64,000 nt of DNA from an uncultured Gammaproteobacteria bacterium (GCA_964446685.1 CAYUPO010000001.1:104502-168501); one strand, 5' to 3'. Shown: positions 32,991-57,747, counted from the first letter of the stretch. The notes: generated by a model from the sequence alone, not told the origin. Translations and numbers: made by a program.

Positions 32991-33446
32991 ATGGAATTTA
33001 TTCATGCCTCAGAACAAGACAACTTAATGATCGCTGCAGAGGTCTTTAGCAAGACTAAAAAAGTTATCAATTTACCAGATCAAGGATATGTAGATTTTAT
33101 TTTGAATTCAGCAGATATTATTGATCAGATGCGAAAGCATACAAACTGGAGAGAGGCTTTGATTGAAATTGAAGGAATACCAGAAGAAGAGCTTTATGGA
33201 ATGGGTTTAATATCCAGTCTAAAAAATTGGGTTGATTCTAGTTACCCTGATATAGACGGTTATACTAATGGATTTAAACAAACTTTTAGAAGTGCCTTCC
33301 GTATGCTTGGAGCAAAAAAAGTTTATAGACCAGATTTATATACCCATCGCCAAATTTTGGCAACTAAACAAGGTCGAGCATATACCCAAGAAAAAGTAGC
33401 TGGCCATCGACACAATTTGTCTGCAGGATTTAAAATTGTAGTTTGA
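32991..33446 (+). CDS. hypothetical protein
   Basis: 151 aa. Confidence 0.35.
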   Translation: MEFIHASEQDNLMIAAEVFSKTKKVINLPDQGYVDFILNSADIIDQMRKHTNWREALIEIEGIPEEELYGMGLISSLKNWVDSSYPDIDGYTNGFKQTFRSAFRMLGAKKVYRPDLYTHRQILATKQGRAYTQEKVAGHRHNLSAGFKIVV

Positions 33447-33455
33447 GAAAGAATA

Positions 33456-33734
33456 TTACATTCCAGGGAGACCCATGCCACCCATTAGGGATTTCATTTC
33501 TTCAGCGGCTACTTTTTGGGATTGTTTTAGTGCTTCATTGACTGCATCAGCTACTTTAGCATGATCATTGTCGCCTTCAATTGAGATAACTTTTTGATCA
33601 CCAGTCATTGCAACAGTCACTCCTTTGTGCTCAACAGTGATTTTAATTTGGGCTAATTTTTTCTGCACTTCCATCGCCTGGTCACGCATTTTTTTCATAT
33701 CACCCAGCTGTTTTAAATTGTCCATTAGTCCCAT
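33456..33734 (-). CDS. ybaB: YbaB/EbfC nucleoid-associated protein
   Basis: 92 aa; classic recR-ybaB pairing. Confidence 0.8.
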   Translation of the reverse strand: MGLMDNLKQLGDMKKMRDQAMEVQKKLAQIKITVEHKGVTVAMTGDQKVISIEGDNDHAKVADAVNEALKQSQKVAAEEMKSLMGGMGLPGM

Positions 33735-33781
33735 ATGGATGAAATTATAAGGGAAGAGATCTGAATACGCAAGGGTAAAAT

Positions 33782-34513
33782 TTAGCCTTTCGGATACTGG
33801 GCGATGGCTAGACGTTTAGCTTCAGCGAGATGATATTCTTCTCCGGGAAGAATTAATCTTTGTGTCCGATATATCGGATTTATTTCTCCGGTTTTTTCAA
33901 CATGATCCCAAAACGCTTTATTTTGCTGTCTTTCCACTTCTTTAACTCGTTGCTGCAATGATTCTGGGGTGTCATTTGGTTCAATCTTAACCAGTGAGGC
34001 TGCGACTACCATTCCTTTATCATATTCTTCAGTTACCTGATGCAAACAGACTTCAGTATAGTCAAAAGGTCGGTTAATCCGCTTTTTAAAAATCAGGACA
34101 GCTGCATGCACTGCCAATCCATGCATTCCCACTCCACCAAAATCTTCATACCCTGGATCAAGGGGGGCTGGATGAGAGTTAATGATTTTTCCATTAAACT
34201 GTTTTATCACATTAATAGGAGTCATGACCGACCAGCCATTTTGAGAAATATAATTGATATCATAAATCCTAAAAGTTGCTAGAAGTGATTGACCATATTT
34301 AAGCCTGGTTGCTTCCTGATCGATTTCACCATTCTCTTTATAGACCAGGTAATCCCTTTTTGGCAGCACAATACAATCTAATTTATGCTCTGAAGCACGC
34401 TCTTTGACCGGTGCTTTTTCATTGTTGGTGATCAACAAATCAGCCTTGTCAAATAACGGCTCACCTGTTGAACCTGATCCTGAAGCTAAGATGGCTAAAT
34501 GAAAATTACTCAT
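33782..34513 (-). CDS. purN: PurN-like formyltransferase (phosphoribosylglycinamide formyltransferase family)
   Basis: 243 aa; LAILASGSGS N-terminus, INSHPAPL (catalytic Asn/His), downstream Asp; C-terminal extension. Confidence 0.55.
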   Translation of the reverse strand: MSNFHLAILASGSGSTGEPLFDKADLLITNNEKAPVKERASEHKLDCIVLPKRDYLVYKENGEIDQEATRLKYGQSLLATFRIYDINYISQNGWSVMTPINVIKQFNGKIINSHPAPLDPGYEDFGGVGMHGLAVHAAVLIFKKRINRPFDYTEVCLHQVTEEYDKGMVVAASLVKIEPNDTPESLQQRVKEVERQQNKAFWDHVEKTGEINPIYRTQRLILPGEEYHLAEAKRLAIAQYPKG

Positions 34514-34552
34514 ACTCTATTTATTGATAAAAAGATTTTTTTAAATCCCGAA

Positions 34553-35371
34553 TTAAGAATTCTTGGCAGATTGAACAACGTTTCTTAGTAAACAGGCGAT
34601 TGTCAGAGGGCCAATGCCTCCAATTGTCGGACAAAATAGCTTGGCTTTTTCCGCAATTGCTTCCTCATCTAAGTCACCGACTGTTTTACTATTCTCATCT
34701 TTACTGACACCAACACCAATTATATAAGCCCCTTTTTTAATATTCTGGGCATTAATAATATGCTTTTTGCCGGTAGCAGAGATAATAACATCTGAGGACT
34801 GGATAATACCATCTGGGTTTTGGGTTTGGGAATGGATCAAGTTTGAGGGGAATCTTTTTGTTAAAAGCATTTCCCTGATCGGTCCACCCGCAGTCTTCCC
34901 TCTGCCTAAAACTGTTATATTTTTTCCTTTAAGGAAATTTTCAGCTTTATCAAATCCTTCAATTCGGGCAAACTCAGTTAGCATCTCCCAAACGGCGGCG
35001 GCTGTAGCAGGCATAAATGGAGCATCAAATTTAAAACCATCAACATCTTTTTTTGAATTAACTGCTTTGGATAACTCTTTAAAATCCCAGCTTACAAAAA
35101 TTGGAAACTGAATAATAATCCCGCTGACTGTTTTATTTAATTTAAGAATCAATGGCAGAACCTGATCTTTCTGATCTTCACTAAATTGATGCAAAGTGGC
35201 AGCAATTCCAATTTCTCCGGCTCTGGCTAGTTTATTTTCGACATAGAGACGGGATGCAGAATTGTTGTTTGCTAAAATGATAGCTAACTTTGCCTGAAGC
35301 TGGTCTTCCGCTATTTCAAGTTTCAGTGCATTTAAAATTGAATCAGCTAGTGGTTTTCCGGATACTTTCAT
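34553..35371 (-). CDS. folD: bifunctional methylenetetrahydrofolate dehydrogenase/cyclohydrolase
   Basis: 272 aa; VLGRGKTAGGP and GGIGPLT motifs. Confidence 0.85.
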   Translation of the reverse strand: MKVSGKPLADSILNALKLEIAEDQLQAKLAIILANNNSASRLYVENKLARAGEIGIAATLHQFSEDQKDQVLPLILKLNKTVSGIIIQFPIFVSWDFKELSKAVNSKKDVDGFKFDAPFMPATAAAVWEMLTEFARIEGFDKAENFLKGKNITVLGRGKTAGGPIREMLLTKRFPSNLIHSQTQNPDGIIQSSDVIISATGKKHIINAQNIKKGAYIIGVGVSKDENSKTVGDLDEEAIAEKAKLFCPTIGGIGPLTIACLLRNVVQSAKNS

Positions 35372-35393
35372 GTGTTATTTATACTACCTCAAA

Positions 35394-35692
35394 CGTCATT
35401 CCAGCGAAAGTCATCGATTCTGAGGTCTAACGCCTCCACCTCCAGACTCGAAGAGCAGGCATCTGTAATAACAGGTTAGCAATTCATTAAATTTTCACCT
35501 AGTTATCAGAGAACAGATTCCCCTTTACAGGGGAATGACGTTTACTAGTTAATTATTAACTGACTTCCGGCCACAGCGGTAGTGGTTTCCGTCATTCCTG
35601 CGAAAGCAGGAATCTGTTATAACTGGAACTAACTAGGAAACTATTGAAACCCTGTATGAAAACAGCAGATTCCCCTTTTCAGGGGAATGACG
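35394..35692. repeat. array of at least four GTCATTCC-type palindromic elements in the folD-yjjX spacer
   Basis: 35516-35540, 35590-35616, 35666-35692 are clear hairpins (ATTCCCCT/AGGGGAAT, ATTCCTGC/GCAGGAAT); 35394-35430 is degenerate. Confidence 0.75.
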
Positions 35693-35697
35693 AATTT

Positions 35698-36243
35698 TTA
35701 ATTATAAAGTTCCGGGTTAATGAATCTGACTAGTGCTGATAGAACTCCAGATCTGTAAGCATCAGTTCTGGTAATCAGATTTTTTGTTAATAAACCAAAC
35801 TGTCCTTCCGCCTGCTTGGTATTTTTTCTTTTATATAAAATATCGCAGGCATCACCCAGTTCAAGTCCCTTTTCTAAAACCATTTCCATCATCTTATGCG
35901 GAGTATGCATTCTGATACTGGATCCAATACCCATTTTGCCACTTTTTTCAAAAACTATCACCCAGCCTGAATCAACATATTCTGAACCAATTTTTTGAAT
36001 TCCGCCTTCAATCCCTACTCCAAAATCAGCTTTTAGCTCTTTCAAAGCTCTTTTAGCCCGATTGATAGCCCCTTTAACTGATTCTTTATCCGACATTGGT
36101 TGATCGGAAACCCCGGAAGCTACATCAGACCCATTAACAACCCATTCTATCTCAGGCCAAACATCACTAAAAGCCAACCTAACAGCTTCCACTTTGACCG
36201 GATTTTTTGAACCAACAGCAACCGTTTTTCTTGGTTTATTCAT
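35698..36243 (-). CDS. yjjX: non-canonical purine NTP phosphatase (YjjX-like ITPase/XTPase)
   Basis: 181 aa; N-terminal VAVGSKNPVK, FGVGIEGG motif. Confidence 0.65.
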   Translation of the reverse strand: MNKPRKTVAVGSKNPVKVEAVRLAFSDVWPEIEWVVNGSDVASGVSDQPMSDKESVKGAINRAKRALKELKADFGVGIEGGIQKIGSEYVDSGWVIVFEKSGKMGIGSSIRMHTPHKMMEMVLEKGLELGDACDILYKRKNTKQAEGQFGLLTKNLITRTDAYRSGVLSALVRFINPELYN

Positions 36244-36415
36244 AGTTAAATTTCTAAGTACTAATTTCTAATTACTAAATAATGTCTAATGAATAAATTC
36301 TTGCTTCGCAATGAATAAATTCTTGCTTCGCAATGAATAAATGTCTAAAGAGTTTAGTCATTAGTATTTGGGATTTGTTTAGGAATTAGAAATTAGAGTA
36401 ATTAGAAATTTTTCT
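36244..36415. repeat. AT-rich spacer with inverted TTTCTAATT / AATTAGAAA heptamer arms plus a 23-bp direct repeat (AATGAATAAATTCTTGCTTCGCA x2)
   Basis: read directly. Confidence 0.6.
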
Positions 36416-36892
36416 TTAGTCTTCCCGTACATTCACCAATCCGCCCAGATACTTTGCCCAATAGATCTCTTCTTCCGAATGACTGATTTTTTCTTCGCCG
36501 CTAAACTGACTGATCTCACCTTCCCATTTATTTTTATATTCAAAACTTTCCTGCTTAAATTCTTCAGGTCCTCTGAATGGATAATCTTCCGGCGCATTTA
36601 GTAATGCCTGCTGGAGAACTTCATAAATTTTAGTAAAGTTAGTTATATCTTTGGCCACACTACCGTAATAAACCATCATCCAGACCGGTTTCCCTTTATA
36701 AAAAACGACTGTTCTTCCGGAAAAAGGTTCACCACCAAAGTAATTATCATGACTTTTCCAGTCATCTTTTTCATATAAAAATGTTTTTGATCCATCTGCT
36801 TCTATTTTTTTACGCGTTTCTCCCGCAGCTGCATAGCCGTGTTTGGTGGATTCAAGAATAAACTGGCGGAGGTCGCTTAAATTGAGTGGCAT
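36416..36892 (-). CDS. hypothetical protein
   Basis: 158 aa. Confidence 0.4.
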   Translation of the reverse strand: MPLNLSDLRQFILESTKHGYAAAGETRKKIEADGSKTFLYEKDDWKSHDNYFGGEPFSGRTVVFYKGKPVWMMVYYGSVAKDITNFTKIYEVLQQALLNAPEDYPFRGPEEFKQESFEYKNKWEGEISQFSGEEKISHSEEEIYWAKYLGGLVNVRED

Positions 36893-36908
36893 ATTATAAT
36901 AGTATTTA

Positions 36909-37187
36909 TTAAAAAGCTTCTTGTCGTCTTAATCTCGGAATTGTTTCTCTCATGATCCATCCATTGGTGGTGTCTCTTGATTCTTGCATTTTACTTTTGA
37001 AATTAGCATTCTGATTAAATTTGAGACTTTGTTCTATTGCCCGATCCAATCTGATCATAGATCTTATGAAATCAGCAGGAGAACTTGAGGTAACAACTTG
37101 ATGCATCCTAATTCCAACTTGAAGGCCAAATTCTCTAACAAATTTATCCGTAACTTCTGGAGCTAATAAAGTTTCTGGAGAAATCAT
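36909..37187 (-). CDS. hypothetical protein (start trimmed to internal Met to avoid an 86-bp overlap with glyA)
   Basis: ORF 36909-37274; internal ATG at 37187 abuts the glyA stop. Confidence 0.25.
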   Translation of the reverse strand: MISPETLLAPEVTDKFVREFGLQVGIRMHQVVTSSSPADFIRSMIRLDRAIEQSLKFNQNANFKSKMQESRDTTNGWIMRETIPRLRRQEAF

Positions 37188-37188
37188 A

Positions 37189-38556
37189 TCAGATATCAAT
37201 TCCTGGGACGGGGAATTTTTTAGCAAAGGAGGTGATCTCTTTTTGAAGCTTGAGTAAGTTTTTGTTTTTAACAATCTCTGCCCGGAATTTTCTCAGTAAT
37301 TCTAAGCGTCCTTCTTTATCAGCTGGCAGAATATATCCTTCAACTTCTTTGATCACCTGGGCAATCCAATTGCCTACCTTCACCATATCTTTTTCTTTCA
37401 TTCCCCGGGTAGTCAAAGCTGGTGTTCCAATCCGGATGCCTGAGGTATAAAAAGGAGGCATTGGATCATATGGAACAAGTGAGAAATTCAGAACGATTCC
37501 GGCAACTTCCAAAGCCTCGGCAGCTAATTTGCCCGACACCTGCTGTCGCTGCAGATCAACTAATATCAGATGATTATCTGTGCCTCCGGAAACCAGATCC
37601 AGACCGTTTTTGGTCAGAGTTTCAGCCAATTTTTGGGCATTTTTAACAATTTGAGCAGCATATTTTTTAAACGAGGCTTTTGAAGCTTCTTCCAGCGCTA
37701 CGGCAATGGCGGCTGTCTGATTGTCATGCGGACCTCCCTGAAGGCCCGGGAAGACTGCAGCATCGATTTTTTTACCCATTTCCGGATCTTTCTTTAACCC
37801 TCTCTCAGTTACCATAATCATCGCCCCTCTTGGACCCCGCAAGGTCTTGTGGGTAGTGGTCATCATCACATCAACATATGGTGCCGGTGAAGGATGCGCT
37901 CCTCCCACTATCAGCCCGGCAATATGTGAAACATCAGCCATCAAAAGTGCACCAACTTTATCAGCAATCTTGCGGAATTTGGCGAAATCGATAGTTCGGG
38001 GGTAAGCCGTAAAGCCGCAAATGATTAAATCAGGTTTTTCATTTAAAACAGCCTCCTCTACTTCTTTATAATCTAACTGACCGGTTTTTTGGGAAACTTT
38101 GTAATGAGCGGTTTTGAAAAACCTCCCGGAAAAACCAATCTCCAGACCATGAGTGATATGTCCACCCTGATCCAGAGCCAGTCCCATCATTTTCTGGCCG
38201 TTTTTCAAAATTCCCATAAAAATAGCGGCATTAGCCGGGGATCCTGAATAAGGCTGAACATTGACATGAGGCACCCCAAACAGTTTTTTAGCTAAATCCT
38301 GGGCATAGATTTCAACTGTATCAACCACTGCATTGCCCTGATAGTAACGTCTTTTTGGATAGCCTTCTGAGTATTTATTGGTAAAAACAGAGCCCAGTGT
38401 TTCAATAACTGCTGAGGAAGTATAGTTTTCTGAAGCAATCATCTCCAGCACCTCTTTTTGGCGCTTTTCTTCCTGTTTAATAGCGTTATAAATTTTAGGT
38501 GATTGTTTCTTTAAGGCCTTCATCTTCGATGGAAATACAATAACCCGAAGTCCCAT
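37189..38556 (-). CDS. glyA: serine hydroxymethyltransferase
   Basis: 455 aa; PLP-lysine region TTTHKTLRGPRG. Confidence 0.9.
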   Translation of the reverse strand: MGLRVIVFPSKMKALKKQSPKIYNAIKQEEKRQKEVLEMIASENYTSSAVIETLGSVFTNKYSEGYPKRRYYQGNAVVDTVEIYAQDLAKKLFGVPHVNVQPYSGSPANAAIFMGILKNGQKMMGLALDQGGHITHGLEIGFSGRFFKTAHYKVSQKTGQLDYKEVEEAVLNEKPDLIICGFTAYPRTIDFAKFRKIADKVGALLMADVSHIAGLIVGGAHPSPAPYVDVMMTTTHKTLRGPRGAMIMVTERGLKKDPEMGKKIDAAVFPGLQGGPHDNQTAAIAVALEEASKASFKKYAAQIVKNAQKLAETLTKNGLDLVSGGTDNHLILVDLQRQQVSGKLAAEALEVAGIVLNFSLVPYDPMPPFYTSGIRIGTPALTTRGMKEKDMVKVGNWIAQVIKEVEGYILPADKEGRLELLRKFRAEIVKNKNLLKLQKEITSFAKKFPVPGIDI

Positions 38557-38667
38557 AAAAAAACAAGTGGATCAATTTGGATCAAAATAATTTAGGATTG
38601 AAAGTTTAAATTTTATATTTAGAACTGAAGTAAATTAAACTATTTTACTAATTAACTAATTCACTAA

Positions 38668-40248
38668 TTAACTATTAAATATTTCGGCGGCGATTCTGAT
38701 GACTTCATCATCCTGAGCTAGTTCGACATTGGCTAGCTCTTCGACTCTGACCGGTCTCTGGCTTAAAGTGGTGGTTACCCGGGCTGGTTTTCCTAAAACA
38801 TCAGTTAAAACTGATTCAAGCAAATTTCGGGAACGGGGAGTTTCCAATATCCTCTGATGGAAAGCATAAGGCACCTCCAAAATCACTATCCCATTATCAC
38901 AGCCCATCAGATTCGCCTGTTTAAGCAGCGCTTCCAGGGAAAAATTGTCAGGTCTGATGGTTTCTAAAATATAATCCCATTTTTCCCGCAATACGATGAT
39001 TTCATGGGAGGGAGCAATCTCCACCTGCTCTTTGAGCATCTGATGGGGCGGGATCTTATCATCTTTCCCTGTATTTACAGGCTGTGAGGGAGAGGATATT
39101 TCACCAATTGTCTGAACCATAGTCATCTGAGGCGCAATCATGTTTGGAGAAATGACCGGAGCCTGAATTCCCAGACAGCTTTCAACTACGGCAACTTCAA
39201 GTGGAAGTGTTGGAATTGAGGTGTATTTTAACTGTTCTAAACTATCTTGAATTAGCTGAATGGAATGCACTAGCTCTCTTTTATTAAATGCAGTAGCCAA
39301 AGTCGTTAATTCTTCATAAATCTCACTACCAAACTGTTGTTTAACACTGATACCTGCCTGAGACTGAATTAGCATCAGCGAGCGCAACACCTCCAGTAAT
39401 TGGGTTGTTCCCTCTTTGACATTTGCCCCTTTTTCCGACAGCTGATAAATAACTGCCAATGCATTGGCGGAATCTTTGCGGGAGATAGCTCCTGCCAGAT
39501 TTAAAATATCTTTAAAACTGGTTGATTTAAGACCTTCTTCGACAGACTGAAGCGTGATTTTTCCTCCGGAGGAAGCGATCTGATCCAGCAGCTTCAAACC
39601 GTCTCTAAAACTCCCGTCCGCTTTACGGGCCAGCAACTTTAAAGCGGCTTCTTCAGCTTCTATTTTTTCTTCTTTGACTACCCGGGATAAAGCTTTAAGC
39701 AGATCTTCTGTGGAAGCAGTCTGAAAATCCAGACGTTGCACCCTGGACAAAATAGTTTGTGGCAGCTTATGCACTTCAGTGGTCGCCAAAATAAAAGCAA
39801 CATGAGAAGGAGGCTCTTCCAGAGTTTTTAGCAAAGCATTAAATGCTTCTGTAGTCAGCATATGAACTTCATCAATAATATAAACTTTTTTCTTAGCCTG
39901 GGTCGGAGCTAGTTTTATCCGCTCCTTCAGATCCCGGATATCATCAATTCCCCTGTTTGAGGCTGCATCAATCTCCATTAAATCCAAATTGGATCCATCA
40001 GTGATAGACAGACACATATTACATTTATTGCAAGGAACTGTTTCCATCTCAGTTCCTTTAACTTCACAGTTGATCATTTTAGCCACTATCCTGGCAGTTG
40101 AAGTTTTACCAGTGCCCCTGGGGCCGCAAAAGAGATAAGCATGGGACAGTTTTTCTGCCTGGTGAGCTTTGAACAGGGTTAATTTGATCTGATCCTGACC
40201 AATAAGTTCTGAAAGTGTTTGTGGACGATACTTGCGATAGAAAACCAT
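38668..40248 (-). CDS. dnaX: DNA polymerase III subunit gamma/tau
   Basis: 526 aa; GPRGTGKTS, zinc module CNKCNMC, SRC/sensor motifs. Confidence 0.9.
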   Translation of the reverse strand: MVFYRKYRPQTLSELIGQDQIKLTLFKAHQAEKLSHAYLFCGPRGTGKTSTARIVAKMINCEVKGTEMETVPCNKCNMCLSITDGSNLDLMEIDAASNRGIDDIRDLKERIKLAPTQAKKKVYIIDEVHMLTTEAFNALLKTLEEPPSHVAFILATTEVHKLPQTILSRVQRLDFQTASTEDLLKALSRVVKEEKIEAEEAALKLLARKADGSFRDGLKLLDQIASSGGKITLQSVEEGLKSTSFKDILNLAGAISRKDSANALAVIYQLSEKGANVKEGTTQLLEVLRSLMLIQSQAGISVKQQFGSEIYEELTTLATAFNKRELVHSIQLIQDSLEQLKYTSIPTLPLEVAVVESCLGIQAPVISPNMIAPQMTMVQTIGEISSPSQPVNTGKDDKIPPHQMLKEQVEIAPSHEIIVLREKWDYILETIRPDNFSLEALLKQANLMGCDNGIVILEVPYAFHQRILETPRSRNLLESVLTDVLGKPARVTTTLSQRPVRVEELANVELAQDDEVIRIAAEIFNS

Positions 40249-40445
40249 ATGAGGATTCTTAGATTACCATAGTTCCACAGTAAAGGGTCAAGATAGAAGA
40301 ATAACTATGGAACAGATAGAAAGAGGTAAGTCCTGAGGAAATTTCTAATTTCTAATTACTAATTGACCTAAATAAATTCCAGTTTCTAAGAAGCTAAACT
40401 ACTTAAACATTATTTAGAAATTAGGTTAATTAGAAATTAGAAATT
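40249..40445. repeat. AT-rich spacer with inverted TTTCTAATTTCTAATTACTAATT / TTAGAAATTAGG..TTAGAAATTAGAAATT arms (dnaX-ybeY)
   Basis: read directly. Confidence 0.6.
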
Positions 40446-40859
40446 TTAATGTTGGTGTATTCCCAGGAGGTGGCTGGTGCCGTGTTCGACTAGCATTCGG
40501 ATCTCTTCTTCAACAGCAACTCCCTCAGCAACAGCATCTTTTTTGGCTTCCGGATAGGAAATGACAATATCACCCAGTCTGGTGATTTTATCCGGTGAGG
40601 GCACAAAACCCATTTTGCTAAGATGCATCACACCATTTTTTTGAGGTTGTTCATAGGGAAAAGAAAGAATATTTGTGGTGCTATCAATACCCCTATAAGT
40701 TTTGTTAATCTCGTGCATCTGATTGTCACCGACAATCGTAATACCTATTTCAATATTTCCATGGATCTGATGCCTTTTTAAGACCTCCATAGCAGCTGAC
40801 TGGACAGCGAATTTGTTAATTTCAAATTTTGTATCAGAATTGACAATAATATTAACCAT
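40446..40859 (-). CDS. ybeY: rRNA maturation endoribonuclease YbeY
   Basis: 137 aa; HGTSHLLGIHQH metal-binding H-box. Confidence 0.75.
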   Translation of the reverse strand: MVNIIVNSDTKFEINKFAVQSAAMEVLKRHQIHGNIEIGITIVGDNQMHEINKTYRGIDSTTNILSFPYEQPQKNGVMHLSKMGFVPSPDKITRLGDIVISYPEAKKDAVAEGVAVEEEIRMLVEHGTSHLLGIHQH

Positions 40860-40863
40860 AAAA

Positions 40864-41301
40864 TTAGGCTGTTAGCCTTTGCCTGACCAACGCACTGACC
40901 CGACTTCCTTCAGCTCCCTGGCCAGCTTTGGCCATTACAGCAGGAATTATTTTGCCCATATCAGCCATGGAAGTGGCACCTAGTTCATTTATAACTTCAT
41001 CAACTAAGGATTGCAACTGGTCATCTGTCAGCTGAGTTGGTAAATAATTTTCCAGGATTTTAGCTTCTGCTTCTTCTTTCTGTGCCTGTTCTTCCCGGTC
41101 CCCTTTTCTAAAAGCTTCAGCTGCTTCCCGGCGCTTTTTTAGCTCTTTTTGCACAACGGAAACTATTGCCTGGTCATTTAGCTCACTACCTGCGACTTCG
41201 GCATATTTTATTTCAGACAAAAGCATCCGCAGAGTTGATACTGCAGTTTCGTCCCGAGCTAACATGGCTGTTTTTAAATCCTGACGTAATTTGTCATTCA
41301 T
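40864..41301 (-). CDS. GatB/YqeY-domain protein
   Basis: 145 aa; YqeY-like N-terminus. Confidence 0.7.
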   Translation of the reverse strand: MNDKLRQDLKTAMLARDETAVSTLRMLLSEIKYAEVAGSELNDQAIVSVVQKELKKRREAAEAFRKGDREEQAQKEEAEAKILENYLPTQLTDDQLQSLVDEVINELGATSMADMGKIIPAVMAKAGQGAEGSRVSALVRQRLTA

Positions 41302-41425
41302 AGTTAAAATTTCTAATCACTAATTGCACTAATTCCTAAATAAATCCAAAATCAGAATGTCTAAAAATTAGGATTTAGAAATTTAGTATTGTTTAGTAAT
41401 TAGAAATTAGTACTTAGACATTGCT
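41302..41425. repeat. AT-rich spacer with inverted TTTCTAAT / ATTAGAAA arms (yqeY-rpsU)
   Basis: read directly. Confidence 0.55.
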
Positions 41426-41629
41426 TTAGCTGGCATCAGCTAAACGTTGTGCTCTTCTGATTTTGCGTCGTCTTTCAGCTAACTGTTCTTTTCTTTTTTC
41501 AGAATTTTTTTTGTGAAACATCAGATCACGATATTCCTGAACCACTTTTTCCGCAATAGATTTTTTCTGAAATTTACGGATAACTGAATCAGTACTATCA
41601 TTTCCTGAAGCTTTAATAATAATTGGCAT
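41426..41629 (-). CDS. rpsU: 30S ribosomal protein S21
   Basis: S21-like RKFQKK..RRRKIRRAQR; start placed at MPIIIK because the ORF-track N-terminal extension (41630-41734) is made of AT-rich inverted repeats. Confidence 0.6.
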   Translation of the reverse strand: MPIIIKASGNDSTDSVIRKFQKKSIAEKVVQEYRDLMFHKKNSEKRKEQLAERRRKIRRAQRLADAS

Positions 41630-41866
41630 AAACTGGGTTAGTAGATCGTTTTTTGTATATCGTGTATCGTTAATCGTATATCGGAAAACAGATTCCTGCT
41701 TTTTCCGATAAACCATACACGATTTACGATTCACTATTACGATTTACTAATAAAAACACCTCCTTTGGTAATTCTAACACGATTATCGCATTAGTTTGAT
41801 CTATTTTACCACAAAAAACCTAATTTGGGGAAACAAAAGCAAAGTCACCGTTTAGACAAATACTTG

Positions 41867-41882
41867 CTGAGCGAAGTCGAAG
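41867..41882. repeat. left IR of GIY-YIG gene 2 (CTGAGCGAAGTCGAAG)
   Basis: perfect RC at 42222-42237; the same 16-mer lies inside the guaA insert. Confidence 0.8.
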
Positions 41883-41928
41883 CATTTCAATATTGCTTTT
41901 TAAATAACTGATCATTATTATCCAGATC

Positions 41929-42198
41929 ATGAGTAGCTGGAAATGGTTTGTGTATATTTTAGAATGTCAGGATGGAAGTTATTACACTGGATTAAGTTAT
42001 AGATATGATCAGCGATATGAACAGCATTTATCTGGATTGGGAGGTAAATACACAGCTAACCATGGAGTTAAAAAATTAGTATATGTTGAGGAATATGATA
42101 ACTTCGAGGAAGCTAAGTTAAGAGAAAACCAGATCCATGGATGGACAAGAAAAAAGAAAGAAAACCTAATAATAGGCAAATGGACAAAATGGCAATAG
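41929..42198 (+). CDS. GIY-YIG nuclease family protein (COG2827/YhbQ-like), second copy
   Basis: 89 aa; WFVYILECQDGSYYTGLS...QH core; bracketed by perfect 16-bp inverted repeat CTGAGCGAAGTCGAAG (41867-41882 / 42222-42237). Confidence 0.7.
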   Translation: MSSWKWFVYILECQDGSYYTGLSYRYDQRYEQHLSGLGGKYTANHGVKKLVYVEEYDNFEEAKLRENQIHGWTRKKKENLIIGKWTKWQ

Positions 42199-42221
42199 GG
42201 TTTTAGCCCAGTAATGAATTC

Positions 42222-42237
42222 CTTCGACTTCGCTCAG
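42222..42237. repeat. right IR of GIY-YIG gene 2 (CTTCGACTTCGCTCAG)
   Basis: perfect RC of 41867-41882. Confidence 0.8.
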
Positions 42238-42258
42238 GAAATATTAAATAAAATTGAA

Positions 42259-43257
42259 TTATTTAACGATAGTTTTGAGAAGATTGAGGGTTTTTGTTTG
42301 TCTTAAGGCGTGTCTTAAATGCATTCTTGGTTCCTGTGACTGGAATTGGGATTTGACTCTGGCGTCCTGGATCTTGTCTATTTCTGCCTGGAGCTCTTCA
42401 TCAGTAATATTTACATTTTCCATTCGAGCGATTTCGGAGAGACCAAGCTCCATTCGAACATTTCTTTCCGCCTGTGGACGCCATTCTGTTTTGATTTGTT
42501 CAGCAGTTTTATTTTGAGTTTTTAAGTATTCTTCAAGCAACATCCCTCTGTCAGAAACATTTCTTTGCAGAGAAAGCATCATTCTGTTTAATTCGTCCTG
42601 AATTAACACTTCTGGGATATCAACATTGGTGACTTTTTCAACTTCCTGCAGAATTGATTCTTCATAATCCAGTTCATTGTTGTATTTAGATTCACTTTCT
42701 AAATCAGTTTTAATTTTAGTTTTAAGATCAGCCAGACTTTCTGCTCCAACACCTTTGGCAAACACATCATCCATAGTTGCCTGAGCATTTTCGGCGTTGC
42801 GGGATTTCCAGCGGTTAAATAAATCATCGATTACTTTTTGAACTTCTTCATCAGTCACCTGTTTAGCAAGTGGTCTTTTAGCGTTTAAAATTTTGTAGTT
42901 ACCTATTTTAACTGTTGGTCTTTCAGTTACCTTAGCGGTAAATACTAACTGAGATCCTTTAGTAAATGAAATAACATTGTATTGTGGATAATCAATTGGT
43001 ACTACATTTGATCCCTGTAACGCTTCGATCAGAGCCTGAGGCATCACTATTTTGAAAACTTCCTGCTGCAGAGAGTTAGCAATTCTTGGCTCAACCATAT
43101 TAGCTGGAGCCTGACCTTTGCGGAAACCGGCAACCTCAACTTCTGAAGCTAACTTGTTATACATATCGTTCCAACGAGCCTCAATATCTGCCCATGGCAC
43201 GGTAATTGTCACTTCGACCTGGGCTTTTGGTAATTTGTTGATTGTTTTAGTCACCAT
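42259..43257 (-). CDS. tig: trigger factor, short form (ribosome-binding and C-terminal arm domains; no recognisable PPIase domain)
   Basis: 332 aa; N-terminal GFRKGQAP ribosome-binding signature. Confidence 0.7.
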   Translation of the reverse strand: MVTKTINKLPKAQVEVTITVPWADIEARWNDMYNKLASEVEVAGFRKGQAPANMVEPRIANSLQQEVFKIVMPQALIEALQGSNVVPIDYPQYNVISFTKGSQLVFTAKVTERPTVKIGNYKILNAKRPLAKQVTDEEVQKVIDDLFNRWKSRNAENAQATMDDVFAKGVGAESLADLKTKIKTDLESESKYNNELDYEESILQEVEKVTNVDIPEVLIQDELNRMMLSLQRNVSDRGMLLEEYLKTQNKTAEQIKTEWRPQAERNVRMELGLSEIARMENVNITDEELQAEIDKIQDARVKSQFQSQEPRMHLRHALRQTKTLNLLKTIVK

Positions 43258-43298
43258 AACTTCGTAAGTTTAGCAGAGCTTGAAGCTAAAATCAACGT

Positions 43299-43634
43299 TC
43301 AGCTATTAAATCTCTCAGCTTGTAAATCGATAATATCTTCAATAGCTCTTTCCCTCAGTTCGCCATCCTTATGAGCTCCACGAAATAAACCCTGATCTCT
43401 TTTAATCTCATCAGATGTTTGGGTTGCAAAATGATATGTTAAGGGCGCATCGAAACCAAGTGAAGGCAAACGCATTATTTTGCTTACTGCCGGTGGATGA
43501 TATTCAGGCGGATTCAGTTCTAATAGATCAAGTAATTTGATGGAATTTTTGTAACCAAAGGCCCAGACAGCTACTCTGATCAGTTTTGAAGGGGCTTCAA
43601 TATGATTAGAGGTGGTTTCTTTGCGTTGAGACAT
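43299..43634 (-). CDS. hypothetical protein
   Basis: 111 aa; weak, unconvincing resemblance to S10/NusE fold. Confidence 0.3.
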   Translation of the reverse strand: MSQRKETTSNHIEAPSKLIRVAVWAFGYKNSIKLLDLLELNPPEYHPPAVSKIMRLPSLGFDAPLTYHFATQTSDEIKRDQGLFRGAHKDGELRERAIEDIIDLQAERFNS

Positions 43635-43664
43635 GCGGCTTATAGTAGCAACTTAGGGAGATTT

Positions 43665-44915
43665 TTACAAGCTTAGGTTACTCATAACTTCATTAAGCGG
43701 CATAATAATAAAATCTTTATCGCCTCTTTTTTTAAACTCAATCTTGTCCCCTGTTTTTCTGGAGATAACCAGCCTGTAAGGAATGCCAATGAGATCATAA
43801 TCAGCAAATTTAGCACCGGCTGTGATATCTTCTCGGTCATCATAAATTACTTCCACTCCTTTATCTAATAATGTCTGATAGGTCTCTTCTGCTTGTTTTT
43901 TGACTTCTGTGTCATTTAAATCCAGTCCAATAAGATGCACTTGAAAAGGAGCTACTGCTTCGGGCCAGATAATTCCTCTGTCATCATGAAAAACCTCAAC
44001 TAAAGTACCCATCACTCTGGTTGGACCAATACCGTATGATGCAAACCAGATTGGTTTGTTTTCACCGTTTTCATCTTTAAAGAACACTTTCATTTTTTCG
44101 GAATATCGGGTGCCTAAAGGGAAAATATTACCCACTTCAGTCGCTTTCATCTCCTCGATATCTCCTTTTCCGCACTGACATTTATCTCCAGTCTGACCTT
44201 CAAAGACCTCTTTATTCTGGGCAAAATCACATTCTTTGCAGAAATAAATAATATCCTCTCCGGCTGGGTTTTCAACCTGAAATTCATGGGTGTGCTTATC
44301 GGTAAAGACTCCCCCGCTGGCTTCAGCTACCATCACTTTAAAGCCAATTCTTTCAAATATTCTGACATAAGCCTGCTTCACTTTTTCATAATACTCAAGC
44401 ATGTTTTCTTCCGAAACATGGGCACTATAGAGATCTTTCATTAAAAATTCCCGGCCCCGCATAATGCCGGATTTTGCCCGTAGCTCGTTTCGGAATTTGG
44501 TTGAGAACTGATAAACTTTAACCGGCAGATCTTTGTATGACTCGATCGTTTTTCCCAGCAGATTCATGACGATTTCTTCATGAGTAAATGACAGACAAAA
44601 CTCGCGGTCATGAATATCTTTAAACTGATACATGATCTCTTTGACATCCGGATCTGACCATCTGCCTGTCTGATCCCAGATTTCCCGAGGATGAAGTAAT
44701 GGCATCGCCATCTCCGCTGCATCAGTTTTATTGAGCTCTTCCCGGATAATGTTATTAATTTTAGTTACTACTCTTAGTCCAAGCGGCAGAAGCGTCCAGG
44801 AACCTGCCATTAACTGGTCCATAAAGCCTCCCCTGACCAGAAGCTGATGATTTACAGCCGTGGCATCAGCTGGTGGTACTTTAAGTGTTTTTGGGAAATG
44901 TTTACTAAACCTCAT
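43665..44915 (-). CDS. proS: proline--tRNA ligase, bacterial-type without INS editing domain
   Basis: 416 aa; class II motifs, N-terminus MRFSKHFPKTLK like bacterial ProS. Confidence 0.85.
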   Translation of the reverse strand: MRFSKHFPKTLKVPPADATAVNHQLLVRGGFMDQLMAGSWTLLPLGLRVVTKINNIIREELNKTDAAEMAMPLLHPREIWDQTGRWSDPDVKEIMYQFKDIHDREFCLSFTHEEIVMNLLGKTIESYKDLPVKVYQFSTKFRNELRAKSGIMRGREFLMKDLYSAHVSEENMLEYYEKVKQAYVRIFERIGFKVMVAEASGGVFTDKHTHEFQVENPAGEDIIYFCKECDFAQNKEVFEGQTGDKCQCGKGDIEEMKATEVGNIFPLGTRYSEKMKVFFKDENGENKPIWFASYGIGPTRVMGTLVEVFHDDRGIIWPEAVAPFQVHLIGLDLNDTEVKKQAEETYQTLLDKGVEVIYDDREDITAGAKFADYDLIGIPYRLVISRKTGDKIEFKKRGDKDFIIMPLNEVMSNLSL

Positions 44916-44971
44916 AAGTGGGAATATTGTACCTATCTGATCTGTTTAACTCAAGTGATAATAAAGATTGA

Positions 44972-45595
44972 TTATTTTTGAATTAAATTGGCTAATTCAT
45001 CAGCGGTGTTTTCCAGTACTGTAATATTTGTAATAATCAGACTATCCGGAACCGGATCTTTTTCATTTATTCCTTTGGTAGTTATTACCTGACGTTTTGA
45101 TACCAACCTGCCCTGTTCACCCTGAAAAGAGTCAATTGTAAATGTTTTCATTGAAGACGCGCGGTCTATCCCCAATAAATCCTTTTGAGTGTCAGACTTA
45201 TATATAAAACTTTGCCTGGCATTAGCCAAAAACGTCTGGTAGTTTGAAAAGTAACTAACTCTGGTATCAACATCAGGAATTGACTGGATATCAAACAGAG
45301 TTTTTTTGGTTAGTGCTAAAAAAATAGCCGCTGTCTCTGTAGCATCTTTATCACTATCAATAAGTCCTAGTACTTCCTGGTATCTGCGCTGAGACAAAAG
45401 AAAGGAAAAATAAGCATGTGTTGCAGGGGTAATCCCAGATAACTTTTCAATAATCAATTCAGTTTTTTGTTTAACCGGGTAGTTCCATTGTCCGGGTACC
45501 AAACCCACTGTTGCAGCATACAGACCAAATAAAGGAAGTAATAAAACAGCTAATACTATTACTAAAATGCCACTGATTTTGAGGATTTTTTTCAT
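44972..45595 (-). CDS. hypothetical membrane-anchored protein
   Basis: 207 aa; N-terminal TM. Confidence 0.4.
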   Translation of the reverse strand: MKKILKISGILVIVLAVLLLPLFGLYAATVGLVPGQWNYPVKQKTELIIEKLSGITPATHAYFSFLLSQRRYQEVLGLIDSDKDATETAAIFLALTKKTLFDIQSIPDVDTRVSYFSNYQTFLANARQSFIYKSDTQKDLLGIDRASSMKTFTIDSFQGEQGRLVSKRQVITTKGINEKDPVPDSLIITNITVLENTADELANLIQK

Positions 45596-45641
45596 ATACT
45601 CAGTATGAAGATTATGTAAGGGATTGGCAAGATTAGTTAAA

Positions 45642-46745
45642 TTAGAAAAATTTACTGATATCAGAAAAAGTTATTAAAAGCAGCAGTCCGAGCAAACAAA
45701 CCATACCAACAGCATGAATCACTCTTTCAATCTCAGCGTTAGCCTTGCGTCCAGTAAGCGCTTCCCACAAAAGAAAGAACAGCCTGCCCCCATCGAGCGC
45801 CGGAATTGGCAGTACATTGAAAAATGCCAGAGATAAAGAAATATTAGCCACAAACCAGATGTAAAACAGGAAAGCATCTTTGCCCTGATCAACTATACTT
45901 TTAGTGATTGAAACCAAACCAACAGGCCCGGCAACGCTTTTGGAAGCTTGGGAAACATTTCCCTGAGATAAATCACCAAAAACCCGGCCCAACCCCATGA
46001 TATTCACTCTGGTAACATCCCAAGAATAAGTGATTCCTGAAAAGATTCTTTCAGTGGGAGTCTTATATTCTTTAAAAGGGATCGGATTAAATACTACCCC
46101 AATTCTAAAAACACCATCTTCTGATTTTTTAGCTATCATTGTCAGGTTTCGGGTATTTTTGCCTTCCATATCTCCGACAACTAAACCTAATTCTGCATTT
46201 TCTCCTCTGGATTTGATCTCATTAATAACATCATCCGTTGTCTGGACTTGTTTGCCGTCAATAGATAATATTCGGTCACCAGCTTTTACTCCTGCAGCAG
46301 CGGCCGGAAAATCAGGCTCGACTTCTGCCACCATTGCTACGGGCTCTAAAACCGGATAAATTACTTTCCATCCCTGAGCAATAATCACTGCGTAAAACAA
46401 AATCCAGGCTAACACCAGATTCATGGCGACACCTGCAACAACAACTAAAATCCGTTTCCAGACATTTTGGGAAGCAAAAGATCTTTTGTCATCCAATACT
46501 TTTTTATCCACTTCATCTTCACCCAACAGTCTGACAAATCCGCCAAAAGGCAGCCAGTTGACTGACCAGATGGTCTCTCCAATTTTTTTACCCCAAGCCC
46601 GGGGTGGAATCCCAAAACCAAATTCCAGCACTTTTATACCAAACTTTTTGGCAGCAAAAAAATGTCCAAATTCGTGAATAACAACTAAAGTGATGATAGT
46701 AACAAGAAAGATTAGGATCGTAGGTATCAATTCAAGTAATGCCAT
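45642..46745 (-). CDS. rseP: RIP zinc metalloprotease RseP (site-2 protease)
   Basis: 367 aa; HEFGHF zinc motif, PDZ, LDGG motif. Confidence 0.85.
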   Translation of the reverse strand: MALLELIPTILIFLVTIITLVVIHEFGHFFAAKKFGIKVLEFGFGIPPRAWGKKIGETIWSVNWLPFGGFVRLLGEDEVDKKVLDDKRSFASQNVWKRILVVVAGVAMNLVLAWILFYAVIIAQGWKVIYPVLEPVAMVAEVEPDFPAAAAGVKAGDRILSIDGKQVQTTDDVINEIKSRGENAELGLVVGDMEGKNTRNLTMIAKKSEDGVFRIGVVFNPIPFKEYKTPTERIFSGITYSWDVTRVNIMGLGRVFGDLSQGNVSQASKSVAGPVGLVSITKSIVDQGKDAFLFYIWFVANISLSLAFFNVLPIPALDGGRLFFLLWEALTGRKANAEIERVIHAVGMVCLLGLLLLITFSDISKFF

Positions 46746-46889
46746 TTTGAAGCTTAAGAATAATGCAATTGAACCGAAGAATCAATAGAAGGTATCAGAT
46801 TAGAATATCAAATATCCAATGCCAAATATCAAATATCCAAACTTAGTATTGGTATTTATTTGATATTGGATATTAGATATTGGATATTT
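46746..46889. repeat. AT-rich spacer with inverted CAAATATCAAATATCCAA / TTGGATATTAGATATTGG arms (rseP-frr)
   Basis: read directly. Confidence 0.6.
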
Positions 46890-47444
46890 CTAAATCTCTC
46901 TCAAATCAGCCTGTTTATCTTTGACCATTCCATCAACTACTGCGTTGGCTTTGTCTACCTGTTCCTGAAGCACTTTTTCTCGGCGGAAAAGTTCGTCTTC
47001 ACCGATTGCTCCGGATTCTTTTTGTTTGAGCCAATCCTCTTTTTGTTCCTGTCTGGCCTGGCGGATTGATACTTTGGTCTCTTCCCCTTTGGTTTGGGCA
47101 TATTTGACGAATTCTTCCCTTCTTTCAGCAGTTAAAGGGGGGATTGGCAGTCTGATGAGTGTTCCATCAACAGCCGGATTTAAGCCCAGTTTTGACTCAG
47201 TAATAGCTTTTTCAACATTTCTGACAACTGTTGCATCCCAGAGCTGAACAGTAAGCAGTGAAGGCTGGGGAGCCATTATTGTTCCCATCTCCATCAGTTT
47301 CATTTTACTGCCATAAGCTTCTACCATCAGCTCTTCAATAATTGCCGGATTAGCTCTGCCGGCACGGATGGCTGCCAGTTCATGTTTAAGGTGATCAAGT
47401 GAATTTTGGATTTTTTGATTTACTTCTGATAAAAAAGGATCCAT
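46890..47444 (-). CDS. frr: ribosome recycling factor
   Basis: RRF family; start moved to MDPFLSE because the upstream part of the ORF is the palindromic element at 47453-47479. Confidence 0.85.
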   Translation of the reverse strand: MDPFLSEVNQKIQNSLDHLKHELAAIRAGRANPAIIEELMVEAYGSKMKLMEMGTIMAPQPSLLTVQLWDATVVRNVEKAITESKLGLNPAVDGTLIRLPIPPLTAERREEFVKYAQTKGEETKVSIRQARQEQKEDWLKQKESGAIGEDELFRREKVLQEQVDKANAVVDGMVKDKQADLREI

Positions 47445-47452
47445 GTTGTTTA

Positions 47453-47479
47453 CAGATTCCTGCTTTCGCAGGAATGACG
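47453..47479. repeat. palindromic element CAGATTCCTGCTTTCGCAGGAATGACG between tsf and frr
   Basis: same hairpin type as 35590-35616 and 51427-51450. Confidence 0.7.
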
Positions 47480-47495
47480 ATTGCAAAGGTTCAAA

Positions 47496-47951
47496 TTATG
47501 AGCCTAAGGCAATTCTTGAGAAAGATTTTACCTGGATATTTTCGCCTAATTTAGCGATGGTTGTTTTGATTAAGGTTTCAATTGTCAGACTGGTATCTTT
47601 AATATATTCCTGATCCATCAGCTCTGCTGGATCTGCAGGATTCATTGATGCAATTTGGAGAGCTAAATCATGAGCTAAAGCTTTGAATTCTTCAGTTTTG
47701 GCTACGAAATCAGTTTCACATTTTAACTGAACCAAAACGCCGATTTTACCGTTGTGGGAATAAGCTTCAACAATTCCGGCACCTGTTTCTCTATCAGATT
47801 TGCCACCAGCTTTGTCTAAACCTTTTTTATGGAGAACTTTTTTGGCTTCTTCGAGATTGCCTTTAGTTTCTTCCAGAGCAGTACGGCAGTCAGCAATTCC
47901 TGCACCTGTTTCTTCTCTGAGTTGTTTAATTAGAGTTATATCAATAGCCAT
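47496..47951 (-). CDS. tsf: elongation factor Ts, minimal form
   Basis: 151 aa; UBA-like N-terminus and CETDFVA core. Confidence 0.8.
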   Translation of the reverse strand: MAIDITLIKQLREETGAGIADCRTALEETKGNLEEAKKVLHKKGLDKAGGKSDRETGAGIVEAYSHNGKIGVLVQLKCETDFVAKTEEFKALAHDLALQIASMNPADPAELMDQEYIKDTSLTIETLIKTTIAKLGENIQVKSFSRIALGS

Positions 47952-47956
47952 TGGAC

Positions 47957-51361: not shown

Positions 51362-51373
51362 CCCGTTTTAATC

Positions 51374-51450
51374 CGTCATTCCCCTGAAAAGGGGAATCTG
51401 TAAATACCTAAGAGTAGGCACCGCATATTCCTGCTTTCGCAGGAATGACG
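51374..51450. repeat. two palindromic elements between the thyA-family gene and dcd-like gene
   Basis: CGTCATTCCCCTGAAAAGGGGAATCTG and ATTCCTGCTTTCGCAGGAATGACG. Confidence 0.75.
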
Positions 51451-51452
51451 TT

Positions 51453-54947: not shown

Positions 54948-55053
54948 AACAATTAAATATCCAAAGTCAAATGTCTAATGCCAAATGTAGAATGTCAAAT
55001 TTCCAATGATGTATTGGACATTTGTCATTTGACATTGGTAGTATTTGACATTT
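54948..55053. repeat. AT-rich spacer with inverted CAAATGTC.. / GACATTTG.. heptamer arms (tmk-mazG)
   Basis: read directly. Confidence 0.6.
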
Positions 55054-55398: not shown

Positions 55399-55403
55399 TT
55401 TTT

Positions 55404-55479: not shown

Positions 55480-55484
55480 GTATA

Positions 55485-57740: not shown

Positions 57741-57747
57741 CGAAAAA

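Follow-up and report, generated by a model that had tools for sequence, protein, structure and literature searches.

Palindromic repeats with heptad-built arms behind stop codons in a 64,000-nucleotide stretch of uncultured bacterial DNA

The 64,000-nucleotide stretch CAYUPO010000001.1:104502-168501, here called the window, carries in several of its intergenic spacers AT-rich modules built from the heptamers TTTCTAA and TTAGAAA. These are copies of one small non-coding palindromic repeat of 110-170 bp, named family A: since the arms and interiors match between different loci, it is best described as a dispersed repeat with terminal inverted repeats, not as the product of independent local slippage. 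More generally, the spacers contain dispersed palindromes with heptad-built arms, which lie after stop codons, are conserved, occur in either orientation and have strong hairpin potential. The reading preferred here, held with moderate confidence, is that these are palindromes resembling ERIC and other MITEs (miniature transposable elements with inverted repeats), which may be kept as intercistronic stem-loops punctuating transcripts and are not canonical terminators.

The window has a G+C content of 38%, and its minus strand carries nearly all of the genes, separated by short spacers. Among these, pgi, purL, yjjX (ITPase), glyA, frr, rseP, tmk and pyrG were assigned by NCBIfam; S21 (rpsU), YqeY, YbeY, DnaX and one small GIY-YIG protein were assigned by Pfam. 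A first-pass annotation, made from the sequence alone, had singled out five spacers, with G+C contents of 19-28% and each flanked by co-directional minus-strand genes; its coordinates, sequences and gene names for these were borne out by re-reading of the sequence and by the NCBIfam and Pfam assignments. Proteins labelled Candidatus Daviesbacteria or Microgenomates match the window DnaX at 53-57% identity, which points to an uncultured Microgenomates bacterium of the candidate phyla radiation (CPR, or Patescibacteria), near Ca. Daviesbacteria, as the host. The window sequence was recovered at 99.9-100% identity in independent assemblies from four sequencing runs, so the modules are not assembly artefacts. 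Runs SRR21621035-37 and SRR12762304 contain the organism. Six relatives with the common gene order rpsB-tsf-frr-rseP...tig-rpsU-yqeY-ybeY-dnaX-glyA-DUF5680-yjjX-folD-purN-ybaB-recR were compared; DnaX identity to the window is 86% in the sister species L084, 65% in L169, 62% in L170 and 50% in L004. In a DnaX scan of genomes, the best of the matches listed is 50% identical and has no modules; in a scan of metagenomes, the matches listed, which reflect a generic ATPase motif, include no relative above 40% identity.

Family A and other heptad palindromes

Three spacers share one layout in the gene sense (minus strand): stop codon, TTTCTAA-type run, centre, TTAGAAA-type run, next gene. Each arm is a terminal inverted repeat of ~35 nt in which a CTAA(TT) core recurs in four degenerate units of 7-9 nt; its consensus is AAATTTCTAA-KTAC-TAATTTCTAATTAC-TAAAYAA, also written AAATTTCTAA-KT(AC)-CTAATT-NCTAATT-(NN)-CTAAAYAA. 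On alignment, one ~35-nt plan fits all eight arms of the three window copies (M1, M2 and M3; Table 1) and the L169 copy, as well as an array downstream of pgi. The centres are variable and 30-100 nt long, and the inverted repeats within M1-M3 reach 20 nt when perfect, and 25 nt at 92% complementarity. The first-pass annotation had placed inverted TTTCTAA/TTAGAAA arrays in all five spacers. They are present in 36244-36415, 40249-40445 and 41302-41425, but the pgi-purL spacer has only a direct AATTAGA array, with neither inverted partner nor hairpin, and the dnaX-glyA spacer (38557-38667) has no TTTCTAA: it carries a different 8-nt unit, AATTAACT, in an array that folds like its shuffles, is 90% identical over 30 nt to 63457-63624 in reverse orientation, and is akin to an arm of M7.

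Similarity between loci extends well beyond the heptamers. When all spacers were compared with one another, M3's 5' arm was the reverse complement of M1's 3' arm at 27/27 positions; the M1 interior (AGTTTAGTCATTAG.ATTTGGGATTTGTTTAG) is 93.5% identical over 46 nt to the element in the L169 ybeY-dnaX spacer, reversed relative to the genes; and the pgi array is 96% identical over 26 nt to an M2 arm. The internal orientation of M1 is opposite to that of M2 and M3, and the L169 copy is opposite in orientation to M1. The window holds three full copies and one partial copy, homologous members of one dispersed element and not simply local heptamer arrays. Whole units do come and go in the arms by slippage. 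With Tandem Repeats Finder, arrays of period 7 with 3.6-5.6 copies were seen at 14296, 36249, 36379, 40340, 40414 and 41393; L084 carries M2 as the same element with one more AATTAGA unit (three in the 3' arm, vs. two in the window); and what mainly separates M2 from the L169 copy is how whole units are ordered and how many there are. The DUF5680-yjjX spacer, which holds M1, is 172 nt long in the window vs. 12 nt in L085. Viral contigs scanned with the arm sequence gave no match, and Rfam gave none over the whole window at gathering score; at a permissive setting, a miRNA hairpin was the sole match for 36000-42000, at chance level (E = 0.57).

The single heptamer TTAGAAA is only mildly enriched in the window (43 vs. 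28 expected, or ~1.5-fold), as might be expected if the modules were a chance product of AT-rich composition. The double heptamer TTAGAAATTAGAAA, with at most two mismatches allowed, argues otherwise: it occurs 18 times against 3.7 expected, a count reached by none of 100 shuffles, and in intergenic DNA alone 17 times against 0.46 expected, where the maximum in 300 shuffles was four. The modules moreover fold with z-scores of -5.5 to -6.8, none of 200 shuffles being as stable for any of M1, M2 or M3, and the 27-nt arm match between elements is perfect. Shuffling against base composition, the check proposed in the first-pass annotation, rules out composition alone, and a chance origin can be given next to no credence.

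Family A is not the only such element. Four other palindromes in the window (M4-M7) have arms built from different units. M4 is missing from the orthologous spacer in L168, L169 and L170; an M5 arm is 96% identical over 26 nt to a non-orthologous spacer in L085 (5262-5351); and M6 is related to M4 (96% over 24 nt, reversed). L168 has two 96%-identical copies of yet another palindrome, of ~134 nt, in its rpsU-yqeY and ybeY-dnaX spacers. The rpsU-yqeY spacer has a hairpin in the window, L086, L168, L169 and L171, with a different sequence in each, and none in L170 or L004. When periods of 3-12 were compared in spacers of at least 60 nt, period 7 was strongest in 34 of 70 spacers of the clade (p = 3e-16), in 40 of 561 coding controls, and in two of 21 spacers of the more distant L170 and L004; a cruder count based on open reading frames (ORFs) gave strong period 7 in 14 of 56 ingroup spacers vs. 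11 of 491 from 136 unrelated loci. Heptad periodicity is seen in about half of the clade's spacers, and many of these are palindromes made from other, unrelated heptads.

Heptad arrays are also found further afield, in distant CPR contigs (DnaX 36-39% identical). L091 and L095 have direct TTAGAAA arrays directly upstream of the dnaX start, with a G+C hairpin following the array in L095, and L140 has other heptad arrays or hairpins upstream of yqeY (presumably in the rpsU-yqeY spacer) and at ybeY-dnaX. Either the yqeY and dnaX junctions of these contigs recurrently attract repeats, or the repeats act there. A separate 9-mer, CAGATAAAT, is present as one seed copy across the yjjX start in L085 (4689-4730), and the DUF5680-yjjX spacer of L168 has it ~6 times in tandem (13505-13563), a clear case of in-place repeat growth in the clade.

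Table 1. Coordinates of repeat elements, candidate signals and selected genes; positions are in the window unless a relative is named.
Feature	Position (strand)	Predicted fold	Details
M1, family A	36248-36411	-37 kcal/mol, z -6.8	arms ~36248-36283 and 36375-36411; inverted repeats I11, I16; fills spacer between DUF5680 stop (36416) and yjjX/ITPase start (36243)
Tandem duplication in M1 central loop	36288-36342		22 nt, 2.5 copies, 100% identical (Tandem Repeats Finder)
M2, family A	40339-40446	-31.8 kcal/mol, z -6.2	arms 40339-40371 and 40414-40446; inverted repeats I12 (20 nt, 100% complementary), I5 (25 nt, 92%); abuts ybeY stop (40446), upstream of dnaX promoter
M3, family A	41302-41414	-30.3 kcal/mol, z -5.5	spacer between rpsU stop (41426) and yqeY start (41301)
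One-armed family A array	14296-14340		5.6 AATTAGA units; between pgi stop and purL promoter
AATTAACT array	38633-38678	z -1.4	direct array of 8-nt unit, 5.8 copies, at dnaX stop; different family, no inverted partner
M4, AATATCC/GGATATT palindrome	46804-46889	z -5.5	between frr stop and rseP promoter; I1 (32 nt, 84% complementary)
M5, AATGTCA/TGACATT palindrome	54966-55049	z -2.95	between mazG-like gene and tmk; I10
M6, degenerate AATATCA/TGATATT palindrome	57099-57190	z -2.4	directly upstream of pyrG; I4
M7, palindrome	63487-63623	z -3.7	one arm of five perfect AGTTAATT octamers; I15
rpsU leader hairpin	41638-41750 (-)	z -4.8	(A/T)ATCGT heptad units; I3, I17
rpsU leader loci	window 41630-41765 (-); L169 8535-8660; L171 190-335; L086 4140-4255; L170 8715-8785; L004 4830-4865		
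Heptad arrays in distant contigs	L091 6955-7000; L095 6950-7000, 11760-11815; L140 5900-6003, 6417-6532		
Candidate dnaX promoter	40263-40291 (-)		TTGACC-N17-GGTAAT; downstream of M2, outside palindrome
Candidate rseP promoter	46757-46785		TTGATT-N17-TATTCT; also in L168
Candidate purL promoter	14252-14279		TTGACT-N16-TAGAAT
CGTCATTCCCCTGAAAAGGGGAATCTG repeat family	window 35372-35697, 51362-51452, 3989-4171, 55399-55484; L169 13875-14184; L085 8896-8948		
purE, purK, purB, fused purL-purQ, guaA, pgi, G6PD, 6PGD	160-15970		
Two archaeal-type PurP-like genes	4172-5278 and 5697-6725		DUF1246/DUF1297

Position, folding and the rpsU leader

The dominant stem-loop begins 0-11 nt past the upstream stop codon in 26 of 30 heptad-periodic spacers, in keeping with the earlier remark that the modules start directly after the stop codons of co-directional genes; the hairpins of M1-M7 all lie between co-directional genes. 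From the stem-loop to the next start codon, distances are bimodal, at 0-25 nt or 43-107 nt. In the long-distance class, the remaining spacer carries a sigma-70-like promoter candidate; the block containing the one for dnaX is conserved in L084, L086, L087, L168, L169 and L171. Members of the short-distance class (M1, M3, M5, and M6) must, judging by the spacing, be transcribed inside an operon, as there is no room for a promoter.

Several other signals were noted in these spacers. The candidate dnaX promoter is within an 8-bp dyad, CCATAGTT...AACTATGG (40263-40310, minus strand), which may be an operator; relatives have a similar one. In the window, the motif ATCCACTTGTT is found at just two places, directly upstream of glyA (38524-38575) and of the purL -35 box (14284-14294); it could be a regulatory site that purine and one-carbon metabolism share. 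L084 has the glyA leader ATTGATCCACTTGTTTTTTTATGGGACTTCGGGTTATTGTATTTCCAT at 100% identity, and there it reads as a 9-codon upstream ORF, so that the true glyA start is probably 38523. Shine-Dalgarno (SD)-like motifs were found in the 20 nt upstream of only ~5 of 55 minus-strand genes, one of them strong (57703), and -10-like boxes lie 0-14 nt upstream of the start codon in many genes; the combination suggests very short leaders or leaderless mRNAs.

The suggestion that the arms could form very long A-U-rich hairpins holds for the three inverted modules. Predicted stems are 25-40 bp long and ~80% A-U, with 6-13 G-C pairs among 41-59, and the centres or loops measure 10-100 nt. The first-pass annotation also observed that the modules lack the G+C stem of classical terminators; this is so, and no T-run follows the stems either, the 3' flanks being AACTATG for M1 and M3 and CCTCAGG for M2. 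A promoter/terminator consensus scan of 33000-48000 found no terminator-like site at any module, and no enrichment of sites (15 overall vs. 12 expected). It is therefore very unlikely that these are canonical Rho-independent terminators, which have a short G+C-rich stem (at least three G-C pairs) and a loop of 3-8 nt, for all that they are placed directly after stop codons; the only clear terminator with a G+C stem plus T-run is at 57736-57771, in the spacer between topA and a gene of 93 aa. The same low standing applies to the companion proposal that the modules donate a promoter to the downstream gene. M2, M4 and the pgi array do precede promoter candidates, and in this SD-poor genome TAGAAA precedes the start codons of yjjX and yqeY by 7-8 nt, but as a -10-like box it lacks the final T, the -35 match is 3/6, and M1 is flipped relative to M3 yet has the same ending. 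Promoter donation by the 3' arm was set aside as weak, given the poor hexamer matches. As to the topA spacer itself (57704-57912), it is 209 nt long, with 40% G+C, a strong SD and no Rfam match, and could harbour a small RNA.

The best indirect evidence that heptad inserts fold in mRNA comes from the rpsU leader, in the divergent spacer upstream of this gene. A hairpin of (A/T)ATCGT units sits there between the perfectly conserved AAGGAGGTG (41757-41765) and the likely true start codon at 41629; calls that begin the rpsU ORF at 41734 or 41716 probably extend it too far, since S21 is 67 aa long in relatives. The distance from AAGGAGGTG to the ATG is 10 nt in L004, 42 in L170, 83 in L086, 101 in L169, 124 in L171 and 127 in the window, and the extra length is always a predicted hairpin, leaving ~6 + 8 unpaired nt. 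The predicted leader fold pairs the SD sequence GGUGU with AUGCC at the start codon, a pairing that might be an S21 autoregulatory structure.

Conservation and possible roles

Between the window and L084, the module spacers differ by four substitutions in 284 nt, or 1.4%, vs. 35% (glyA, DUF5680) to 54% (dnaX) at four-fold degenerate sites (Fisher 8e-44); M1 is 98.96% identical over 96 nt. The boundary at the stop codon is sharp, with ~82% identity over the last 80 coding bases and 99% beyond. Such figures weigh against the proposal that the repeats do nothing for the host, being wholly selfish or neutral (MITEs plus heptamer slippage), building up wherever non-coding DNA can be borne in a compact genome and surviving because the palindromic insert loops out of the mRNA. 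Neutral DNA passed on vertically would be expected to lie near synonymous divergence, and family A unit sequences are still present in L169, whose DnaX is 65% identical. Much else would suit this proposal: the copies are dispersed and in both orientations; orthologous spacers turn over between species; whole units have been gained and lost between L084 and the window; there are degenerate copies (M5 and M6, z -2.4 to -3) and one-armed remnants; a local 9-mer has been expanded in place in L168; and assembly contigs break within arms. Selfish repeats without function are quite possible, if on balance doubtful.

If the palindromes are instead kept as intercistronic stem-loops, they would be transcribed within operons and fold into A-U stem-loops of 25-40 bp. 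The fold would loop the insert out, restoring the proximity of stop and start codons (or of SD and AUG, in the rpsU leader), and the stem-loops could punctuate the transcript by 3'-end protection, by partial U-tract-independent termination, or as sites of processing. A role as 3' stabiliser, partial terminator or processing site is suggested by likeness to the effects reported for ERIC and Correia elements (PMC2229807). The mobility of family A is deduced from its distribution only, because no transposase or REP-associated tyrosine transposase (RAYT) was found among the window proteins scanned by Pfam and NCBIfam, a few ORFs (e.g., 60907-63456) being unscanned.

That lack of a transposase or RAYT is one of several points that weigh against the stem-loop interpretation. 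Comparison of junctions gave no target-site duplication and no consistent 5'-TA-3' termini, TA being plausible only in the L169 copy. There is no consistent sense bias in G-U pairs or stability, and the antisense strand folds as well or better in three of seven elements; with M1 flipped, this argues against selection on the sense RNA specifically. In the rpsU leader, compensatory changes are nearly absent: one of 21 pairs has changed on both sides, in arms that scarcely vary. In a second species pair, short heptad-free spacers differ by 2-16% vs. 45% at four-fold sites, and a heptad hairpin there by 17%; because heptad-free spacers are also conserved, the constraint seems to apply to spacers in general and not to heptad elements alone. 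Orthologous spacers of relatives carry unrelated palindromes or none, which is odd beside such strong sequence conservation. Finally, where gene ends of the window converge there is hardly any spacer and no hairpin, which argues against a general terminator role. An apparent A-U to G-C compensatory change in the hairpin downstream of recR (L085 vs. L169) was not used, as its repeats can pair in several registers and fold weakly.

At the DNA level, the CTAATT/AATTAG cores could be sites for a protein (a transposase, a repressor of the omega or ribbon-helix-helix kind, or a nucleoid or partition protein), or the arms could extrude as cruciforms. A conserved core with variable linkers in all arms, the occurrence of both orientations, the equal folding of both strands, the conservation of loops as well as stems, and the direct TTAGAAA arrays directly upstream of dnaX in the distant L091 and L095 would all be consistent with this. 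A role of this kind is nonetheless unlikely: the same architecture is found elsewhere with the unrelated heptads AATATCC, AATGTCA, ATCGT and AAGATAC, each of which would require its own protein; unit spacing varies from 7 to 9 bp; M1 and M3 are inside operons, with no promoter there to regulate; and the module-flanking genes have no Pfam DNA-binding domain, several small ORFs nearby matching no Pfam. AT-hook or HU-like binding sites, offered in the first-pass annotation, are less likely as a general explanation for the first of these reasons, the shared architecture of spacers with unrelated heptads.

A broader proposal can be put forward tentatively, and is itself somewhat unlikely: that heptad-armed stem-loops punctuate operons throughout a lineage of CPR bacteria in which SDs and classical terminators are scarce. 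Stem-loops would then set transcript 3' ends or processing sites without a U-tract, and would bridge stop to start, or SD to AUG in the rpsU leader, so that translation could be coupled across inserts of 100-170 nt; the hairpins would be renewed continually through heptamer slippage and copying between loci. A structure-specific nuclease might take part, possibly one of the small GIY-YIG proteins encoded nearby. The gene for one of them (41929-42198, plus strand), within 41869-42235, has on either side a perfect inverted repeat of 14 bp (GAGCGAAGTCGAAG at 41869, CTTCGACTTCGCTC at 42222), and the whole could be a mobile cassette. The flanking repeat is found alone at 8862, and L091 and L095, distant CPR contigs, have similar sequence. 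Another GIY-YIG gene lies at 5292-5615.

CPR genomes are small and tightly packed, and transcript ending, processing and translation in them are almost unstudied. Heptad periodicity in about half of the spacers, conservation at promoter-like or higher levels, and a hairpin between SD and AUG in rpsU, an essential ribosomal protein gene, suggest a role for RNA (or DNA) stem-loops in gene expression. Even if they are only selfish, the elements break assemblies and lead to wrongly called gene starts, as with rpsU and glyA.

The surrounding genes show some further differences between relatives. The window dnaX (38668-40248) is a mosaic relative to that of L084 (196-1773), both ends being ~85-92% identical and the middle (~38970-39770) 57-76%, which suggests recombination with a more divergent lineage. 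A 118-aa gene between dnaX and glyA in L084, L085, L169 and L170 is absent from the window (38527-38667); the window has an extra ORF of ~92 aa (37187-36909) between glyA and DUF5680 relative to L084; and L086, L087 and L171 have a gene of 167-222 aa between ybeY and dnaX, at the position of M2. The purine and pentose-phosphate gene set at 160-15970 is large for a CPR genome (Table 1).

Comparison with known repeats

Heptamer repeats known from other bacteria include the short tandemly repeated repetitive (STRR) sequences of cyanobacteria, reportedly described by Mazel et al. in 1990. Direct repeats of the intergenic heptamer TAACTGA have been found in Beggiatoaceae, Cyanobacteria and Bacteroidetes (MacGregor, 2015; PMC4679880). 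Like both of these, the arrays here are intergenic, SD-poor and patchy in phylogenetic spread, often end a few bases before a start codon, and have counterparts in related species with shorter, repeat-free spacers; at least three 7-nt units stand head to tail between genes, and copy number changes between close relatives (two in the window, three in L084). TAACTGA and STRR repeats are, however, direct repeats of one heptamer, whereas here two inverted arrays make up a palindrome and several heptad families occur together. The GGGAATC repeats of Xanthomonas come closer in this respect, as inverted pairs of tandem intergenic heptamers; they are G-rich and G-quadruplex-forming, and their function is unknown (Rehm et al., 2015; PMC4692102). 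Shared features are intergenic tandem 7-nt units, convergent arrays in one spacer, stem-loop potential, and a position that is conserved among related species while repeat length varies. Family A differs in being AT-rich, with degenerate units of 7-9 nt, a ~35-nt arm and internal sequence common to its copies, and a CPR host; TTTCTAA/TTAGAAA units have no G-tract, and so do not fit the G-quadruplex pattern of the Xanthomonas type.

There is also a close likeness to bacterial MITEs such as ERIC/IRU, Correia/NEMIS, RUP and YPAL: non-coding, dispersed, A+T-rich elements of <200 bp with terminal inverted repeats, whose transcripts form long stem-loops and are co-transcribed with flanking genes, with effects of ERIC and Correia on mRNA stability or RNase III processing (Delihas, 2008; PMC2229807). 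Family A shares with these its size (108-164 bp), its low G+C (spacers of 23-28%), its common terminal inverted repeats, its dispersal and its predicted folding. It has no sequence homology to ERIC, Correia, RUP or YPAL, and its arms, unlike theirs, are internally repetitive and change by whole-unit slippage. With intrinsic terminators and the 3' stabilisers of the REP/BIME kind it has in common a stem-loop set immediately behind the stop codon, either between two co-directional genes or ahead of the next promoter; it differs in having no G+C-rich stem, short loop or U-tract, and convergent gene ends here are without stem-loops. REP/REPIN elements proper, which are G+C-rich palindromes of 20-40 nt that stand alone or as inverted doublets and go with a RAYT gene, were rejected, as the arms are AT-rich and heptad-repetitive and there is no Y1 transposase among the proteins scanned. 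The GTCATTCC palindromes, rightly described in the first-pass annotation as a family distinct from the modules, are closer to REP doublets than family A is. A second, G+C-richer repeat family, CGTCATTCCCCTGAAAAGGGGAATCTG and its variants, forms inverted doublets like REP/REPIN and is also present in relatives (Table 1).

In inc18 plasmids, the omega repressor recognises arrays of 7-bp heptads, both direct and inverted, its sites being contiguous WATCACW heptads inside promoters, beside the repressor gene. Arrays of 7-bp units in both orientations are common to the two systems, but here the arms are 30-100 bp apart, spacing is 7-9 bp, many sites are intra-operonic and no such gene is nearby. 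Tandem interspersed guide RNA (TIGR) arrays, with 36-nt units and box C/D-like motifs (PMC12045711), were rejected on the 7-9-nt period, the single palindromes and the lack of a nearby Nop-domain gene. Integron attC sites, imperfect palindromes with R''/L''/L'/R' cores (GTTRRRY) that follow promoterless mobile cassettes and have intI close by, were likewise rejected, with flanking housekeeping genes in an order conserved across six relatives, no paired core sites and no integrase among the scanned proteins; CRISPR was ruled out by unit size and gene context.

Family A thus combines known kinds of repeat, heptamer arrays and MITEs, in a new way. Its occurrence in CPR bacteria is regarded as new because a full-text literature search gave no description of such heptad-armed elements in their genomes. 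In cyanobacteria, Xanthomonas and Beggiatoaceae an excess of heptamer repeats was already known; it is thereby extended to a new phylum, and tied to MITE-like dispersal.

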